NCBI GenBank assembly: GCA_014729085.1
Contig: WJKM01000006.1
Coordinates: 88,016 to 152,015, forward strand
Origin: Candidatus Dojkabacteria bacterium
GTDB taxonomy: Bacteria; Patescibacteriota; Dojkabacteria; B142; WJKM01
Direction of reading: 5' to 3'
DNA length: 64,000 nt
Shown here: positions 38,354 through 46,450 of the stretch, one piece after another
Layout: each line of letters starts with the position of its first letter
Position numbering within the stretch: the first letter of the stretch is position 1
The notes under the pieces: generated by a model
What the model was told of the DNA's origin: nothing
Databases searched by the model: none
What the model saw: only the letters and a program-made list of their open reading frames with translations
Program-made: the position numbers and the translations under genes

Positions 38354-39892
38354 TTATATATTTTCTTCTGTAAGTTTTAGATTATATAAATTGTTTTTAC
38401 CTTCAGATGTTTCTGTTTCTTTTGAATCCTGAATTAACATGAGTAAAGCTTTATTGTTTGATAGCATATAAAAACTTTCATCTACAATTCCATCATTAGT
38501 AAATAAATCAATTAGATTTTCTCCATTTCGATCCATAATTGTGATAGTTTTTTGGCCACTTTCGATACTTTTAGCTAAGAGAACGATGTGAGTTGAAATA
38601 GTGTTCCATTGAATTGAATGTATCTCAGGATTGTAATTTTCTAATATTAGATTGTGTTTAGAGATAATTTCATTTGTTACTTTATTTTCCTTGATTGTAT
38701 AAGAGAAGATTTTATTATCCTTCTGATAAAGTAGAGAGAGCCCATCTTTTGAAAAATCAAGAATATTAATATTTTGTCCTATTCTATCAATGAAGCTGTA
38801 TTGCGTATTTAGGTAATAATACTCATCTTTTGTTTTGTAAACAATATATTTCCCATTATTTCTATCTATATCTAGATATTCAATTTCCTTTGGCAGGCTT
38901 TGATTCTCAAGTGAAATTTTTTTCTTGGTTTCATCTTTGTAATAATACAAATTATTATCTTTATTTGATTTGAAAACTAAGGTATCTCCATTAATTGCGT
39001 ATATTGGTTCATGATCTGGATGGTAAGTGATTATGATATTTTTTTGATTACTTAGAACAAGCTCAGTTAGAAGTGTTTTGTCTTTTACTATAAGAGAAGT
39101 TGAACCTCTAAACCATTTGAACTGTTCTGGAGTAAAACCTAACATTCTTTCAATTGAAAGCAGATCTTCTGGTTTCGGATTTGGATTGGGGCTTTCTGTT
39201 TCAAAAATATAATGGGGGGTTTTATCAGATTTAAATAAGATTTTTTTATTATCAGGAGAGGGGAGAATTTTATATGAACCAGAATTAATAGCATCCTCTA
39301 TTTCTGGGATTATGTTAATAATCTTAACGGGTTGACTTTCAATCGTATTGAATATGGTAGAGATATCAGTTAATTGGAGTTGGAAAACACCATTTTCTAC
39401 ACCATTGGGAGATTTGCTGACAACGTAATAAACAAAATCGCCATATTCAGCAAAAAAAACTTTCTCTATATTTGTTGCTGGTAATCTTAGTTCTAAATTT
39501 GGATTTTCAGGAAATAGGAAAGGATTGATATCTGTAATCATCCCTCCTTCTATATTAAGGATGCTTTCCCATTCATTGTATCCCTCCATAGTTAAGTTCA
39601 ATTTATGTTCGCCTGGTTCGATGTTAGCTATTATATTTTCCTTTATTTCTTTAGGTTCACCATCTATTTTTGCTGTTAATTTCTCTTTATAGTCATCGTT
39701 ATTAATTCTGATAGACCCCGTTTGTATTATGATTGGTTCTCGAGTAGCGGAGGGGTTTTCATTATTTCCTAGAATACTGCTTAGGTTGATCTTCCTGCTG
39801 TTAGCGGATAACAAAGCCCACAAAAGCATTACGATAAATGCAATAGAGGAAGAAAATATCAATAATTTTTTTTGTGTATTAAATTTTTTCAT
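38354..39892 (-). CDS. Membrane-anchored PEGA-domain protein with a beta-propeller/TolB-like C-terminal region.
   Basis: N-terminal TM helix. PEGA-like 'IEPGEHKLNLTMEGYNEWESILNIEGGMITDI'. C-terminal region is repetitive and beta-rich. Confidence 0.55.
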   Translation of the reverse strand: MKKFNTQKKLLIFSSSIAFIVMLLWALLSANSRKINLSSILGNNENPSATREPIIIQTGSIRINNDDYKEKLTAKIDGEPKEIKENIIANIEPGEHKLNLTMEGYNEWESILNIEGGMITDINPFLFPENPNLELRLPATNIEKVFFAEYGDFVYYVVSKSPNGVENGVFQLQLTDISTIFNTIESQPVKIINIIPEIEDAINSGSYKILPSPDNKKILFKSDKTPHYIFETESPNPNPKPEDLLSIERMLGFTPEQFKWFRGSTSLIVKDKTLLTELVLSNQKNIIITYHPDHEPIYAINGDTLVFKSNKDNNLYYYKDETKKKISLENQSLPKEIEYLDIDRNNGKYIVYKTKDEYYYLNTQYSFIDRIGQNINILDFSKDGLSLLYQKDNKIFSYTIKENKVTNEIISKHNLILENYNPEIHSIQWNTISTHIVLLAKSIESGQKTITIMDRNGENLIDLFTNDGIVDESFYMLSNNKALLMLIQDSKETETSEGKNNLYNLKLTEENI

Positions 39893-39951: not shown

Positions 39952-41064
39952 ATGGGTAAGGTTAAAAAACAAAAAACATTTAACTATGAACTTGCACATA
40001 ATGAAAAGAACCATGTTAAAATTAATCAACATTCAATTATTAATTCAATTATTAATAGATTCTCTGTGGGGAAAAAAATTGCAATTGATTTAGGTACAGC
40101 CAATTCACATGTTTTTTTAGAAGGAAAGGGTATTGTAGTCAGTGAGCCAACTGTTGTTGCCTATTCCAAAACAGACAAGAAGATTGTTGCGATTGGATTG
40201 GAAGCTAAAAAAATGTTAGGAAAATCTCCTGGGGATATTATCGTAAAAAGGCCTTTAAAACAAGGTGTAATAGCCAGCTATAAACTTACAGAAGCTCTAC
40301 TGAAAGGTTTAATACAACAAGCTTTAGGTAGATTTATTTTTGTGAAACCAGAAATTATGGTTGCTGTACCTGCTGGTTTGACTTCCGTAGAGGAAAGGGC
40401 GGTTATGGAAGCTGTAAACTCTGCTGGTGCTTCAAAGATATATTTAATTCCAGAGCCAATAGCTGCGGCAATCGGGGCTAAACTTCCAATAAGTTCATCA
40501 TCCGGAAATATGATAGTAAACATGGGAGGAGGCACAGCTGAGATTGCTGTACTTTCTATGAATGGAATTGTAACTTGTATGTCAAAAAGACTAGCAGGAG
40601 ATGCGGTAAATGACTCAATAATATCTTACGTGAAGAAAAAACATAAACTAGTAGTTGGAGAACAAATGGCAGAAAAAGTAAAGATAAGGTTGGGAAGTGC
40701 TATTAAAATGTCAGAACCTTTAAGTATGGAGATTAGGGGAAGTGATTCAACAACTGGCCTCCCAAGAAGCATAGAGTTGGACTCCAACGATATTGTTGAA
40801 CCTATCCGAGATGTAATGAACGAAATAATAAAATCAATTAAGGAAGTATTAGAGTCCACTCCTCCTGAGCTTGCATCGGATATTATTGACAGAGGAATAG
40901 TTTTATCTGGAGGTACATCACTAATTCGTGATATTGATAGATTGTTTAGAGAGGCTTTGGATGTTCCAGCCCATGTTGTCGAAAACCCATTAACTTCTGT
41001 AGTAGAAGGAGTAGCAGAAGCTCTTGATAATATTGATATTTTAAAACGTATTCTAAAAACTTAA
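39952..41064 (+). CDS. mreB: Rod-shape-determining actin homolog MreB, with an N-terminal extension of about 40 aa.
   Basis: 'IAIDLGTANSHVFLEGKGIVVSEPTVVAY' and 'NMGGGTAEIAVLS'. Actin-fold phosphate loops are present. Confidence 0.88.
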   Translation: MGKVKKQKTFNYELAHNEKNHVKINQHSIINSIINRFSVGKKIAIDLGTANSHVFLEGKGIVVSEPTVVAYSKTDKKIVAIGLEAKKMLGKSPGDIIVKRPLKQGVIASYKLTEALLKGLIQQALGRFIFVKPEIMVAVPAGLTSVEERAVMEAVNSAGASKIYLIPEPIAAAIGAKLPISSSSGNMIVNMGGGTAEIAVLSMNGIVTCMSKRLAGDAVNDSIISYVKKKHKLVVGEQMAEKVKIRLGSAIKMSEPLSMEIRGSDSTTGLPRSIELDSNDIVEPIRDVMNEIIKSIKEVLESTPPELASDIIDRGIVLSGGTSLIRDIDRLFREALDVPAHVVENPLTSVVEGVAEALDNIDILKRILKT

Positions 41065-42041: not shown

Positions 42042-43010
42042 TTATTTAAAATATAGACTTAAGATTTTCATTGGAATTGTTATATTGTCTAGTTTATCTG
42101 CAAAATGGTGGATGCTTATTCCAGGATTATAGTTTACTTCATTTACACCAGAGGTAATTTCTTTATATGGTTTTTTGATGTCTGGAGATATGTAGTCTAT
42201 ACCGCAATGGTCTAAAAATAAGATTTTCTGTATTTTTTTGAAGAGATGCAGATTTTCTTTAGGTACTTCGTGTATATTTATTCTTCGGACCTCTCCTCCT
42301 TTTGAAAAATTACAGGAACTTCTAAGATAGATTTTAGAGCCTGAAGAGGGAATAGTTTTAAGGTCATATCCTTGTAAACTGATAAATTCATTTAAATGCT
42401 CATCTATAACTATTTTCGGCATAATTTTTTCTGTTCGGGAGTGATTTTTATCAAGAATTAATTCTTCTACTGTATTGTTGCCATTCCCTGTTATATAAGC
42501 AGGGATTCTTTCGAGAATATCAATAATCTTGCCTTGAAAAACTAAAATTCTATAATCTTTTCCTTTTATATGTTTTTCTAAGATCAATCTTTGCTTTCCC
42601 ATATCTTCAATAATTTTAATTGCGACATCTAGTTCTTCAGGATTTTGTATATTTGCAGTAACACCTTTTCCACATACTCCTGTTACTGGTTTAACCACAA
42701 CTGGAAAATTATTATTAGCAAGATTATGCATTTGATCTTTGTAATTAATATCAAAAACTTTACAGAAAGAGGGAGTAGGAATATTATTCTTAGTAAGAAA
42801 TTTATGTGTAGTATACTTATCTTTTGATATTCTACATGCTGAAATACTATTTATTCCCAGAGCAGCGTTTTGTATTAAAAGGTATTTTTTACCATTTCCT
42901 ATTTTGCATATACTTCGTTGAGTATCAAGTATCTCAAAATCTAGTCCAATTTCTTCTGCAGCCATTATATATAAATTGGTATGCCTACTTTCTGTAAAAG
43001 GTTTAATCAT
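42042..43010 (-). CDS. ATP-grasp amidoligase, paralog B, 322 aa, arranged in tandem with paralog A.
   Basis: 'FPVVVKPVTGVCGKGVTANI', 'YRILVFQGKIIDILERIPAYITGNGNNTVEELI' and 'DHCGIDYI'. Same length and collinear motifs with paralog A. Confidence 0.7.
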   Translation of the reverse strand: MIKPFTESRHTNLYIMAAEEIGLDFEILDTQRSICKIGNGKKYLLIQNAALGINSISACRISKDKYTTHKFLTKNNIPTPSFCKVFDINYKDQMHNLANNNFPVVVKPVTGVCGKGVTANIQNPEELDVAIKIIEDMGKQRLILEKHIKGKDYRILVFQGKIIDILERIPAYITGNGNNTVEELILDKNHSRTEKIMPKIVIDEHLNEFISLQGYDLKTIPSSGSKIYLRSSCNFSKGGEVRRINIHEVPKENLHLFKKIQKILFLDHCGIDYISPDIKKPYKEITSGVNEVNYNPGISIHHFADKLDNITIPMKILSLYFK

Positions 43011-43073: not shown

Positions 43074-45521
43074 TTATAAAGAGTAGTTTGCTTTTAGTAC
43101 TTTTTTTACATCTTTGATTGAAATAGGGGTGGAGGAGTCTGATGGTTTAGTAAATTCCATTAACTCATTTGGGTTTGCCTTCCCATTCCATAAATAGCCT
43201 AGGGATTTTGGGTTATTAACAATATATTGCCCAGTTTTTATGGCCCATTTCAAATAAAGATCTTTGGTAAAAGCTCCACTACTAGATGTATCTGATATAC
43301 CTCTCTTGAATCTTACTGTGTAGTTCCAAGCTTTGTTTTCGTCTTGGATGTATTTATATGCTTTGTTGTAAACAGCTTTAAAATCCGAAATCAAGGAGGT
43401 GTTCATTAATATAATAAGTAAGCTTGGGATTTTAAAGACTTTGTCTTTTTTTCTTGAGTGGCCTACTATTGTAGCTAGCCCTTCTTCTGTAATTATATAA
43501 CGTGGGGTACCTATTTTCCAAATTAATTCCTTCTTTTTCTTCCCATTATGCAGCCGTAATAAGTGTGTGAGTATTTCATGTCCTATTGCATTGTTTAGTT
43601 GATCTTCACTCCTACCACGGTTTTCTGGTAGTTTTATTCTTCCAGAACTTTTTCCTATAGACATTTTAGTTCTCTTATCGCTAAATTTAATAGGATAATC
43701 GAGTTTGTATTTGTCGAGAGCTTCCTGCATTCTTTTTCCTACTTCTCGGGCAGGGATCTCTGGATTCTTATCTATTGTTATTTTATGATTCTTAAGGATT
43801 TTTCTAGCAAGTCTCCTTATTTTACGGTTAGGTTGCCCAAAAAGTTCAATTGATCTTTGAGTAAAGGTATGTGGGTCATGTCCAATTGTTTCCATTAAAT
43901 ATACCATTTTTTTATATTCTTTAATTTTGTTTCTATAGATTCGTCCTATACTGTCAAATGGAGGATTTAAAAGTTCTAGTTTGTCAAGTATTTTATCTGG
44001 ATCAAATTTTAAAGGTTTGTATTCAAATTGTGGATTATAATCACAATTTTTCTTGAAAAACTTTTCTTTTTCTTCTTTAACATTCCGAGGTCTTAATGCA
44101 GGAATAATGCTTAATATTTTATTGAATTCTTCGAATGCTTCATCCAATTTTTTAATTTTAGTTGGTTTGAGCAATGCATAAATATTTTCTTTTAATTTAC
44201 TTTCCTCTGGACCCTCGATTTTTTTAACGTCAATTATGAAATTCCCTAGATCTTTTCTTCCTATTGACAGATTATAACCTTTGATTTGATCATTTATTAT
44301 CCTGCATTCACAATCAATTGTTTGATTGCCTAATTTTATTTTTATAAATACTATCTCGTACTCACCTTCCTCTACCTTTTCTTCCAGAATGCCAAGTTTC
44401 ATAGCTATTTGGGAACTAATGATCGAGGTTCTTCGGCTTGTATCAACCAAACTCATTGTTTGAACTTTTTTATCTTTGAAAATTATAGTCGCGGGCATTA
44501 TATTACTAATAATTTCTTTTCCAGAGATCCTTTCTATTTTTTCTTCAACTTCACCACCAAACAGATCTTTTCCTATTCTTATACCATGATCAGAATTTTT
44601 AACTTCCAGACCTTTAGCTTTATACAGTCTCCAAGCAAGGCCTCTTCTGTTTACTATTTGAATAGATAATCCGGGCCTTGCATTAAGTTCTACAATGACA
44701 GGTCCTTTTTCATTATCTATAAGGAAGTCAACAGCTCCAAAATTAAGTCCGGAAGCGTCAATAGCTTTAGAGGCGTATTTTAAGATTTCGTTCCAATGGG
44801 GAATTTCTAGTCCCTGGAATGGTAGTTTTGTTCCAGGTACAAATTCAATCGGATATCCTTTCCCCCCACTTCCTTTTCCATAAGTAGAAGTAGTAGTAAT
44901 GCCGCTTGCAAGGTCTATACCAGTACCAACAGCGCCTTTTATCATATTAGCCTTTCCTTTTGATTCTTTTGTAGGAAATCGAACATAGGCCATTATAGGA
45001 ATTTTATTGTATGTTACAACTCTTATATCGGGAGTTCCTTTATAAGTGTAGTTTTTTAGGTCATCATGTGTTCGTATTCTTTCCTCAAAAAAAGCTTGAT
45101 CCGGTTCGTTTCTAAGGGAATATTTTCCATCAAGTATTTCCAGGGCCATGCTTTTAATTTGATATGCAGATACTCTGCTACCATCGGATTTAATCCAATT
45201 TCCGTTTTTGTCTCTATTATAAAAAATTTCGATACCCGCTCCTTGTGCCCCCTGTACTGGTTTCATGACAAAACTTGCAGGTAATTTGTTCCAGTTGAAT
45301 GCTTCAAATTCTGAATAATCCTTTATGACTCCCAGTAATTCTGGTGAGGGAATATTTTCTGAAGCCAATATTTTTTTTGTAAGTAATTTATCGTCAGCAA
45401 TTTTCCTGCCTCTGGTATTACCTTCTTTTTGTATGAATAGTAGATTTCTCGCATTTTGTCCGAGAACCTTATTTCTATTCCTCAGTATTTGAAAGATTGT
45501 CATCTTCGTTTTTAGGATCAA
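43074..45521 (-). CDS. Tri-domain fusion: RimK-type ATP-grasp ligase, retropepsin-like (PF05618-type) protease, and MATCAP/DUF1704-like HExxH metallocarboxypeptidase.
   Basis: N-terminal domain: 'NARNLLFI...ADDKLLTKKIL', 'SFVMKPVQGAQGAGIEIF' and 'GAVDFLIDNEKGPVIVELNARPGLSIQ'. Middle domain: 'SLVDTSRRTSII...SIGRKDLGNFIIDV'. C-terminal domain: 'AIGHEILTHLL' (HExxH) and 'EEGLATIVGH' (QEGLA-type motif). Confidence 0.7.
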   Translation of the reverse strand: MILKTKMTIFQILRNRNKVLGQNARNLLFIQKEGNTRGRKIADDKLLTKKILASENIPSPELLGVIKDYSEFEAFNWNKLPASFVMKPVQGAQGAGIEIFYNRDKNGNWIKSDGSRVSAYQIKSMALEILDGKYSLRNEPDQAFFEERIRTHDDLKNYTYKGTPDIRVVTYNKIPIMAYVRFPTKESKGKANMIKGAVGTGIDLASGITTTSTYGKGSGGKGYPIEFVPGTKLPFQGLEIPHWNEILKYASKAIDASGLNFGAVDFLIDNEKGPVIVELNARPGLSIQIVNRRGLAWRLYKAKGLEVKNSDHGIRIGKDLFGGEVEEKIERISGKEIISNIMPATIIFKDKKVQTMSLVDTSRRTSIISSQIAMKLGILEEKVEEGEYEIVFIKIKLGNQTIDCECRIINDQIKGYNLSIGRKDLGNFIIDVKKIEGPEESKLKENIYALLKPTKIKKLDEAFEEFNKILSIIPALRPRNVKEEKEKFFKKNCDYNPQFEYKPLKFDPDKILDKLELLNPPFDSIGRIYRNKIKEYKKMVYLMETIGHDPHTFTQRSIELFGQPNRKIRRLARKILKNHKITIDKNPEIPAREVGKRMQEALDKYKLDYPIKFSDKRTKMSIGKSSGRIKLPENRGRSEDQLNNAIGHEILTHLLRLHNGKKKKELIWKIGTPRYIITEEGLATIVGHSRKKDKVFKIPSLLIILMNTSLISDFKAVYNKAYKYIQDENKAWNYTVRFKRGISDTSSSGAFTKDLYLKWAIKTGQYIVNNPKSLGYLWNGKANPNELMEFTKPSDSSTPISIKDVKKVLKANYSL

Positions 45522-46200
45522 TTAGTAAGTCATAGAAACGGAAATATTCAGTTAATCTTAATCCTGTGAATTTCCCAATAAATAGGTTTATAGGGATTAA
45601 TAGTATTATAACCCAAGGATAATTAAGGAGAATATTTTGTAGGGATTCATTTGCGATAATTGTTAAACATATACTTGTTATCAAAATACTTCTAATGATA
45701 ATTTGAAAAGTCTTTTTTATACCACTTTTAATATGCACTTTGAGTAATTGTTCTGAAATTATTATTAGGAGTACTACATTTAAAGGATTTATTTGAACTA
45801 ATAGTTGGTCTGAAAGTTTACGTGCTATTGCCATTACAATGAAGATAGCAATTGTTGATGAGATTAAAATTAGGGATATTTTAGGATAATAATGTAATTG
45901 AATTTTTTTCGTAAGTAGATATGAGATAAAAATTGCTGCATAGGATGAAAAAATCAAGAGTGTACCATAGCTAATTCCTAGAAACAGGTCAGGTTTATTA
46001 TTGAAAGTCAATGTACTTCCTAAGGAGTAAAAAAGGAAAATGGTAGCTATAGTTGCATATATGCTTATCGTTCTTAAACCAATCAAATATCTAAAGATAT
46101 TAATAACAGTCATTATCAAAGGAATAGAAAGGAGAAAGCTTAAAGTAATTATTGTTTCTTCTCCTCCTTGTAGGAGGGTTTCAATTAAAGGATGATACAT
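45475..46200 (-). CDS. Polytopic membrane protein with about 7 TM segments (7TM_transglut-like partner). Its 3' end overlaps the start of the fusion gene by 47 nt.
   Basis: Seven hydrophobic segments in 241 aa. First gene of the minus-strand ATP-grasp operon. Confidence 0.6.
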   Translation of the reverse strand: MYHPLIETLLQGGEETIITLSFLLSIPLIMTVINIFRYLIGLRTISIYATIATIFLFYSLGSTLTFNNKPDLFLGISYGTLLIFSSYAAIFISYLLTKKIQLHYYPKISLILISSTIAIFIVMAIARKLSDQLLVQINPLNVVLLIIISEQLLKVHIKSGIKKTFQIIIRSILITSICLTIIANESLQNILLNYPWVIILLIPINLFIGKFTGLRLTEYFRFYDLLIDPKNEDDNLSNTEE

Positions 46201-46417
46201 GACCAGAGATATAAAAAATATTGTTCACTTTGAGGGCTCTTAAGCACATAATCCTCGCTACGCTCGGAATTATTTGCCTTCATCCTGTAAAACAGGATTT
46301 CGGCAGCTTGTACAGAAAAATGTAGATTATTAATAATTTACATTTTCCGTAACAATGAACCGTTTTATCTAGAGAAAAGATTAAATAAATATAATCAATT
46401 ATATTATAAATACAGAA

Positions 46418-46450
46418 AGACCCCAAATATTCTTGGGGTCTTCTTTATTA
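46418..46450 (-). terminator. Rho-independent terminator downstream of rplL.
   Basis: Minus-strand read: 'gaccccaa gaatat ttggggtc' followed by 'tttctgtattta'. Confidence 0.7.

Follow-up and report, generated by a model that had tools for sequence, protein, structure and literature searches.

MATCAP became known in 2022–2023 as an enzyme that detyrosinates and deglutamylates tubulin in eukaryotes; to our knowledge, its bacterial homologs are uncharacterised. The MATCAP/TMCP enzymes, of which an HExxxH zinc motif is a feature, cleave the C-terminal Tyr and then the next Glu off acidic tubulin tails (PMC10499314). The ...EE(Y) tail that MATCAP1/TMCP1 and TMCP2 trim is rebuilt by an ATP-grasp ligase, TTL/TTLL (PMC10499314, PMC13269789). 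Among bacterial systems, the ATP-grasp alpha-L-glutamate ligase RimK extends the -EE terminus of RpsF, and the retropepsin-like peptidase RimB removes the Glu residues that RimK has added (PMC11957791). In RloABC of Pseudomonas aeruginosa, a seven-transmembrane (7TM) protein of family PF14402 (RloB) and a TIGR02291/PF14397 ATP-grasp ligase (RloC) are accompanied by a PF05618 protease (RloA); in genetic tests, the protease works against what RloB and RloC produce, loss of rloB or rloC suppressing the defects of a triple rloA protease mutant (PMC11957051). Here we describe a gene of Candidatus Dojkabacteria bacterium whose product combines, in one chain, an ATP-grasp ligase and a MATCAP zinc peptidase, both intact, with a degenerate retropepsin-like domain between them. 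The gene lies in a stretch of 64,000 nt, hereafter the window (assembly GCA_014729085.1, contig WJKM01000006.1, positions 88,016 to 152,015 of the forward strand), with a G+C content of 31–35%.

A first-pass annotation of the window had proposed that one chain of 815 residues joins an ATP-grasp ligase to two different peptidase folds, and both profile matches and folds bore out this architecture (Table 1). The three domain assignments are far beyond chance. All four motifs quoted in that proposal were found in the translated open reading frame (ORF), namely VDTS (residues 359–362), SIGRKDLGNFIIDV (419–432), GHEILTH (647–653) and EEGLA (679–683; numbering is that of the 815-residue frame throughout). 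The true start is probably the ATG at 45503, six codons downstream of the TTG, which would give 809 residues; an identical protein at NCBI, named 'DUF1704 domain-containing protein [Candidatus Dojkabacteria bacterium]', also has 809 residues and begins at this ATG.

The fusion is no rarity: clustering at 50% leaves at least 46 full-length, colinear representatives, which, together with many independent assemblies, rule out an assembly or frameshift artefact. Among the best 80 species-representative genome loci, about 45 carry the fusion, in Peregrinibacteria, Peribacteria, Gracilibacteria and other Patescibacteria. The hosts are Patescibacteria with reduced genomes, and the systems that such genomes keep tend to be important. 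For conservation analysis, a first search gave 120 proteins (88 with two domains and 32 with three), and a wider alignment held 83 sequences, three of which are not MATCAP fusions; the remaining ~80 true fusions span 27–55% identity. We noted that several loci with Patescibacteria-like gene content (L043, L056–L089) are labelled 'uncultured Bdellovibrionales', 'Pseudomonadales' or 'Saccharibacteria', labels that look doubtful, and that the Nitrospirota label of one fusion protein looks like doubtful automatic taxonomy.

The peptide-bond-forming ATP-grasp domain had been placed at about residues 1–330. Matches to PF14397 (ATPgrasp_ST; E = 7.2e-55, 186.6 bits, above its cut-off of 31.4) and to TIGR02291 ('alpha-L-glutamate ligase-like'; E = 5.9e-68, 229.2 bits) confirmed it at residues 27–305, with its catalytic residues intact. 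The ATP-binding Lys is K87, in FVMKPV, and the Mg ligand motif is VDFL...ELNARPG (D265, E278, N280 and R282), so that the central-domain Lys and the Mg2+-binding D/E...E-x-N of the ATP-grasp superfamily are both present. K87 and D265...E278-L-N280-A-R282-P-G align with LVVKLV and VDIL..EVNASPGL (VDIL..GPLVMEVNASPGL) of RimK, and also with the corresponding motifs of Ddl. The Lys and the D...ExNxR were invariant or nearly so in the 32 close homologs and were kept in nearly all of the 83 aligned sequences. In an AlphaFold2 model of the full-length protein (mean predicted local distance difference test, pLDDT, 86.8; predicted template modelling score, pTM, 0.56), the ligase part matches the folds of CphA1, ArgX/LysX, RimK and Ddl.

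Because its TIGR02291 score lies below the equivalog cut-off of 314.2, the ligase is a relative of RloC and not an equivalog. It differs from RimK in belonging to another ATP-grasp subfamily and in having no RimK N-terminal domain, and the RimK Pfam model covers residues 248–286 only. The TTL model, PF03133, reached 14.5 bits (cut-off 20.1) and matched only residues 263–288. On these matches, we class the ligase as RimK/RloC-like and not TTL-like.

The peptidase domain at the other end of the chain matched PF08014 (E = 1.4e-35, 123.4 bits, above the cut-off of 27) and TIGR02421 'QEGLA' (E = 1.4e-35, 123.3 bits, under the equivalog cut-off of 338.65). Human MATCAP1 (KIAA0895L; 7z5g/7z6s) was matched by sequence with E = 6.6e-17, and human MATCAP 7z5g was also the top Foldseek match in the PDB (E = 7.7e-13, template modelling score 0.65, target-normalised). 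The gluzincin-like metallopeptidase domain that had been proposed is therefore present, and its motifs sit where the family has them; the zinc motif, however, is HExxxH and not the HExxH that had been named. By alignment offsets, E649 corresponds to the catalytic E281 of human MATCAP1; MATCAP1 mutants E281A and E281Q are inactive (PMC10499314, PMC13269789). The TEEGLA of the fusion protein likewise aligns with the TEEGLA of human MATCAP1. H648, E649, H653, E680 and G681 were invariant among the 32 close homologs, and in the wider alignment the HExxxH residues were kept in 81 of the 83 sequences and the EG of EEGLA in 78 of the 83. Both sequences without HExxxH belong to the three that are not MATCAP fusions, and ~78 of 80 fusions retain the MATCAP motif.

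Standalone TIGR02421 'QEGLA' proteins, of ~320–380 residues, share their family and motifs with the fused domain, which, with its score of 123 against a cut-off of 338, is not an equivalog of them. One such gene in Photobacterium damselae (RS17025) is induced 27-fold at low salinity, and the neighbouring locus tag RS17020 is annotated as the glutathione synthase GshB (PMC10308900).

The middle domain was identified less directly. With the full query or the middle domain alone, Pfam returned no PF05618 match above threshold (gag-asp_proteas, Asp_protease_2 and PF05618 were all sub-threshold), and a profile of 23 middle domains found only marginal Ddi1 matches in the PDB (E about 0.1). The Ddi1 alignment registers exactly on the catalytic motif (AlIDTSRRTTI vs AfvDTGAqTTI). 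When compared by hhalign with the PF05618 domain of the ~470-residue two-domain paralogs, the middle-domain profile matched with a probability of 99.7% (E = 2e-26), and the paralog profile in turn finds the RloA structures 9g58/9g59 and Lpg0085 (2pma). Modelled with AlphaFold2 (pLDDT 92.6, pTM 0.82), the domain had as its top folds RloA 9g58, 2pma, Ddi1 and the HTLV-1/HIV-1 proteases. We therefore assign a retropepsin fold on the profile-profile match and the modelled fold, and not on Pfam. VDTS and SIGRKD are positionally equivalent to the D-T-G and G-R-D/N of retropepsins, with Ser in place of the Gly of D-T-G (motif D360-T-S-R).

As for the aspartic protease that had been proposed here, fold and homology hold, and the catalytic features do not. 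The domain lacks ~45 profile columns of the PF05618 paralogs, including the invariant S97, G100 and R104 (SSHG..R). In the first search, 86 of the 88 two-domain proteins had D-T/S-G and 86 had the long insert. By contrast, the 32 three-domain proteins were all of the short form, with fewer than 90 residues from the Asp to the GR, and their site read DTS in 22, DTG in four, DTT in two, and DSS, DPG, NPL and DMS in one each. Among the wider ~80 true fusions, D-T/S-G was kept in only ~7, the site otherwise reading DPG, DPT, NPN, SLN, TPT, STK and so on, and the catalytic Asp was missing in about a third. In the same alignments, the catalytic residues of the ligase and of MATCAP are essentially fixed. 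Furthermore, the 429-residue ligases that adjoin a standalone MATCAP gene in two other Patescibacteria (L006, 3705..4994; L007, 3707..4996) carry a short retropepsin-like C-terminal domain with N-T-G (VNTGRYRS), an Asp-to-Asn change that reads as an independent case of active-site loss where MATCAP is present. Taken together, these alignments suggest that the middle domain is probably a pseudo-protease.

We also considered that both peptidases might be active, as the first-pass annotation had supposed, with the retropepsin acting as an endopeptidase inside the added chain and MATCAP trimming its end in a two-stage editing of the tag. The retropepsin-like fold is of high confidence, D360, T361, G421 and R422 each show conservation of 90% or more among the 32 closest fusions, DTSRRT hardly varies in Dojkabacteria, and the published RimB-RimK hybrid is active (PMC11957791). 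Against this stand the Ser that replaces a Gly of the DTG motif called 'wholly conserved' in A2 family proteases (PMC11957791), the deletion of the insert with its three invariant residues, the loss of the motif from most fusions and of the Asp from many, and the NTG of the unfused MATCAP-linked ligases. We therefore consider this scheme quite unlikely.

Returning to the pseudo-protease, we noted that IDTSRRT is almost invariant within the Dojkabacteria clade, and the middle domain is therefore under selection; its selected role is most likely non-catalytic. Two properties of related proteases indicate what such a role might be. RimB is a binding partner of RimK that increases both the ATPase activity of the ligase and its yield of poly-Glu (PMC11957791), and the positive charge of the RloA channel suggests that this protease has an affinity for acidic substrates (PMC11957051). 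The family would offer a case of peptidase replacement, in which a retropepsin domain decays where MATCAP arrives.

The gene directly upstream encodes a 7TM protein of 241 residues; its last 29 nt are shared with the ligase gene, an overlap also seen in the Dojkabacteria locus L001. In every oriented locus examined, a 7TM gene lies directly 5' of the ligase gene; the 7TM protein is an obligate partner of the ligase gene. It matched PF14402 with 44.6 bits (cut-off 25, passed). The RloB model (NF052267) covered it only at model positions 310–506 of 508, with 39.6 bits against a cut-off of 900, and the transglutaminase domain of RloB was not found in the 241-residue protein, whose match is to the C-terminal half of RloB only. 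Its relatives have PKD domains or nothing where RloB has the transglutaminase domain. In Peregrinibacteria-type loci (L004, 4439..5986, and many of L010–L089), the 7TM protein has 500–570 residues and a signal-peptide-like N-terminus, with PKD domains in L004. Both scores being below their cut-offs, the fused domains class as equivalogs of neither RloC nor TIGR02421, and by its partial match the 7TM partner is not a full RloB.

The last membrane segment of the 7TM protein is followed by a strongly conserved motif, G(K/R)(W/F)TGLRxxExxRF, and then by a short tail, which in the window ends ...NEDDNLSNTEE. By the positive-inside rule, the Lys and Arg content of the loops (10 predicted to face the cytoplasm, three outside) favours an N-out/C-in topology, which relatives with a signal-peptide-like N-terminus and PKD domains also fit. 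The C-terminal tail is thus predicted to be cytoplasmic, where an ATP-dependent enzyme must act. A search with the 7TM protein gave 12 homologs, and tails were instead read from the 80 genome loci, for a count that covers 82 loci. Where MATCAP was fused, adjacent or nearby, 36 of 44 7TM proteins ended in -EE (including -EEE and -EEEE) and eight did not; where the fetched flank held no MATCAP, -EE occurred in one of 38 and was absent from 37 (Fisher's exact p = 2.7e-14 over the 82 loci, kinship ignored). As a background, at least two acidic residues among the last three were found in only 9% of 481 ORFs from the same loci. Within the clade of the window, the linker varies and the terminus is held (..DTEE, ..DSEE, ..NTEE, ..NSEE, with one ..DPEK). 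This pattern suggests that the cytoplasmic tail of the 7TM protein is a substrate, and in the MATCAP-linked versions the -EE tail is a concrete and testable candidate.

We favour, with about even confidence, the explanation that the fusion is a cytoplasmic bifunctional 'writer-eraser' enzyme working with the 7TM protein encoded just upstream. Its RimK/RloC-type ATP-grasp domain would use ATP to add one or more amino acids to the carboxylate at the C-terminus of an acidic peptide or protein tail, most likely the cytoplasmic -EE tail of the 7TM partner, and the MATCAP zinc enzyme (HExxxH + E) would remove C-terminal residues again, limiting or resetting the extension. The two cyanophycin-synthetase-like ligases encoded downstream might add further residue types. 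The middle domain would derive from the RimB/RloA-type protease that sister genomes carry in fusion with the ligase; having lost its catalytic features, and having been functionally replaced by MATCAP, it would probably survive as a module for dimerisation, for regulating the ligase, or for binding and presenting the acidic tail (conserved DTSRRT). What we infer here is which way the chemistry runs, which residue is added, what the substrate is and what the middle domain does. The action of the carboxypeptidase on an acidic C-terminal tail, for example, is predicted circumstantially, from the co-occurrence of a partner -EE with MATCAP. The biological role may be envelope or osmotic homeostasis, by analogy with Rlo.

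The proposed system would work like RimK/RimB and RloABC, with an eraser homologous to MATCAP. The antagonism that we infer between ligase and MATCAP has been demonstrated for RimK/RimB and is implied genetically for RloBC/RloA. To this extent the build-and-trim logic put forward in the first-pass annotation survives: ligase and MATCAP are both intact in one chain, and the second peptidase is probably inactive. In comparison with RloABC, the 7TM protein here is without the inactive transglutaminase domain, a MATCAP carboxypeptidase has been added, and the ligase scores 229 bits against the TIGR02291 cut-off of 314. The retropepsin module, shortened and with DTS, is fused to the ligase and is therefore cytoplasmic rather than secreted as RloA is. 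In comparison with RimK/RimB, the fusion has a degenerate protease motif and a membrane protein as its partner, and the trimming probably falls to MATCAP; the RimB-RimK hybrid is, like the fusion, a ligase-protease chain, joined in the opposite order with RimB N-terminal. In comparison with MATCAP and TTL, ligase and peptidase share one chain, the ligase is not of the TTL family, there is no tubulin, and the candidate tail is that of the 7TM protein.

The likeness to tubulin tyrosination and detyrosination, also suggested earlier, is circumstantial: the adjoining 7TM protein ends in -EE almost only where MATCAP is present, and the ligase that would rebuild the tail is not a TTL. A more specific form of the favoured explanation, which we put forward tentatively, is a prokaryotic 'C-terminal tail code' in which the -EE tail of the 7TM protein is extended by the fused ligase (and possibly by the accessory ligases), trimmed by MATCAP, and held by the dead retropepsin. 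If this were true, the tubulin-code eraser MATCAP would have its ancestry in a bacterial writer-eraser module for which acidic -EE tails were already the target. More generally, the fusion points to where eukaryotic MATCAP may have originated.

Several observations weigh against the writer-eraser explanation. The full-length model has a pTM of only 0.56, which makes its arrangement of the domains tentative. When the ligase domains were grouped at 60% identity, about 11 clusters remained, and at this level the link between -EE and MATCAP is suggestive and not significant; only about five lineages or architectures then underlie the pattern (the window and L001; L005; L006 and L007; a large Peregrinibacteria-type cluster; L055). 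Among the eight MATCAP loci without -EE are a close relative, L002 (..ILNKK), and L010 and L011, and the one locus with an -EE tail but no MATCAP in the fetched flank is L030 (..NEEE), of the two-domain paralog type. The -EE might serve for docking and not be a substrate. Lastly, the strong conservation of DTSRRT in Dojkabacteria may leave room for residual or altered catalysis.

Downstream of the fusion gene lie two genes for accessory ATP-grasp ligases, 38% identical to each other, whose matches to cyanophycin synthetase are confined to its ATP-grasp region (model positions about 164–470). Similar ligases occur in 13 other loci, and L010 has a tandem pair directly 3' of its fusion gene. These genes bear on a second explanation, under which the three ATP-grasp ligases would make a free oligomer or polymer of amino acids for the cell envelope, poly-alpha-glutamate-like or cyanophycin-like, which the 7TM protein exports or anchors and whose length MATCAP sets, or which MATCAP recycles; no protein tail would be modified. 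RimK does make free poly-alpha-L-glutamate, stimulated by RimB (PMC11957791), the matched region of cyanophycin synthetase is the chain-extending one, and rlo mutants are altered in cell shape, osmotic tolerance and ampicillin sensitivity (PMC11957051). The position of the Dojkabacteria cluster beside mreB and a PEGA-domain gene, and the Pfam label of PF14397, 'sugar-transfer associated', also fit. However, many loci have no accessory ligase, the 241-residue 7TM protein matches no transporter family (its sole match being PF14402), and the -EE tail specific to MATCAP loci would be left unexplained. We regard a free polymer as unlikely.

The gene represents a fused version of an operon conserved in Patescibacteria, which comprises the 7TM protein, the ligase with or without the retropepsin, MATCAP and extra ATP-grasp ligases. 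In Dojkabacteria, its variants occupy a single slot between rplL and mreB, which holds the 7TM gene and a two-domain ligase in L009, these two and a RimK-like ligase in L008, and additionally a divergent standalone MATCAP in L005; in L001 and L002 it holds the 7TM gene and the three-domain fusion, and in the window the 7TM gene, the fusion and the two accessory ligases. Of the standalone MATCAP proteins, that of L005 (P0121) is nearest to the fused domain, with 38% identity. In L006 and L007, the 7TM protein, ligase, MATCAP and RimK-like ligases are encoded by separate genes in that order. The two-domain ATP-grasp + PF05618 proteins of Patescibacteria (~470 residues; for example P0028 and P0093) are 45–59% identical to the fusion over the ligase domain and have in common with it the 7TM partner and the Dojkabacteria slot. 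They differ in keeping DTGA(D/L)xTS, the long insert and SSHG..R, in having no MATCAP, and in a 7TM tail that is not -EE except in L030. Together, the fusion and the unfused operons physically connect carboxypeptidases of the MATCAP type with 7TM proteins and with ligases of the RimK/RloC type, and so predict a function for hundreds of 'DUF1704' proteins.

The fusion gene is downstream of nusG-rplK-rplA-rplJ-rplL, and a neighbouring ribosomal protein might accordingly be its target, as RpsF is modified by RimK (PMC11957791). The rplK-rplA-rplJ-rplL synteny held in all Dojkabacteria loci examined, and the L7/L12 protein of the window has an unusual Lys/Glu-rich N-terminal extension. However, no link to a ribosomal operon was found outside Dojkabacteria (L004, L006, L007), L7/L12 ends ..KVELK in all relatives and is not acidic, and the invariable partner is the 7TM gene. 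A terminator-like hairpin also lies between rplL and the 7TM gene; it resembles a bidirectional terminator and would separate the cluster from the ribosomal operon. With the synteny confined to Dojkabacteria and the L12 tails not acidic, we rejected a ribosomal target as very improbable.

Parts of this system are already known: the proteins are public under generic names, and the RimB-RimK hybrid has been published. Our literature searches returned no functional study for TIGR02421/QEGLA/DUF1704 and no paper naming MATCAP together with ATP-grasp. In a search that did not cover Iyer et al. 2009, we found no published description of the ligase/pseudo-retropepsin/MATCAP fusion, of retropepsin decay with MATCAP, or of the -EE correlation. 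The 2009 work is said to have defined these Pfam families and reportedly describes a 7TM/ATP-grasp/aspartyl-protease neighbourhood.

Table 1. Features of the fusion gene and its surroundings (window coordinates; residues in 815-residue numbering)
Feature	Position	Strand	Basis
Three-domain ORF (ATP-grasp ligase, retropepsin-like pseudo-protease, MATCAP carboxypeptidase)	43074..45521	-	continuous 815-codon frame from TTG
ATP-grasp ligase domain, PF14397/TIGR02291-like (RloC type), residues 27–305	44607..45443	-	profile matches, motif alignment
Shortened retropepsin-like domain (PF05618/RloA/RimB type), residues 334–432, probably non-catalytic	44226..44522	-	hhalign, AlphaFold2 fold
D360-T361-S362 at the catalytic D-T-G position, then R363-R364	44436..44444	-	alignments
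MATCAP domain (PF08014/DUF1704/TIGR02421-like), residues 461–786	43164..44141	-	profile matches, fold
HExxxH zinc motif, H648-E649-I-L-T-H653	43563..43580	-	alignment to human MATCAP1
E679-E680-G-L-A (family 'QEGLA' motif)	43473..43487	-	alignment; E680 and G681 invariant
7TM partner gene, 241 residues, seven hydrophobic segments, PF14402 7TM_transglut, RloB-like	45475..46200	-	profile matches
C-terminal -NTEE of the 7TM protein, candidate acceptor/substrate tail	45478..45489	-	tail comparison across loci
Accessory ATP-grasp ligase 1, 322 residues, like ATP-grasp (G) region of cyanophycin synthetase	42042..43010	-	TIGR02068, E 1e-63, model positions 164–470
Accessory ATP-grasp ligase 2, 322 residues	41067..42035	-	profile matches
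Terminator-like 12-bp G+C-rich hairpin with T-runs on both strands, between rplL and 7TM gene	46416..46443	.	consensus scan only
mreB	39952..41064	+	
512-residue gene with weak PEGA-domain match	38354..39892	-	
L7/L12 gene	46469..47032	-	

A promoter scan of the window was uninformative, with 34 sites found and 27 expected. The mreB gene and the 512-residue gene that flank the cluster are kept in all Dojkabacteria loci examined. The L7/L12 protein of the window has 187 residues, about 55 of which form a Lys/Glu/Asp-rich N-terminal extension that accounts for its greater length; its counterparts in five related Dojkabacteria loci have 133–142.

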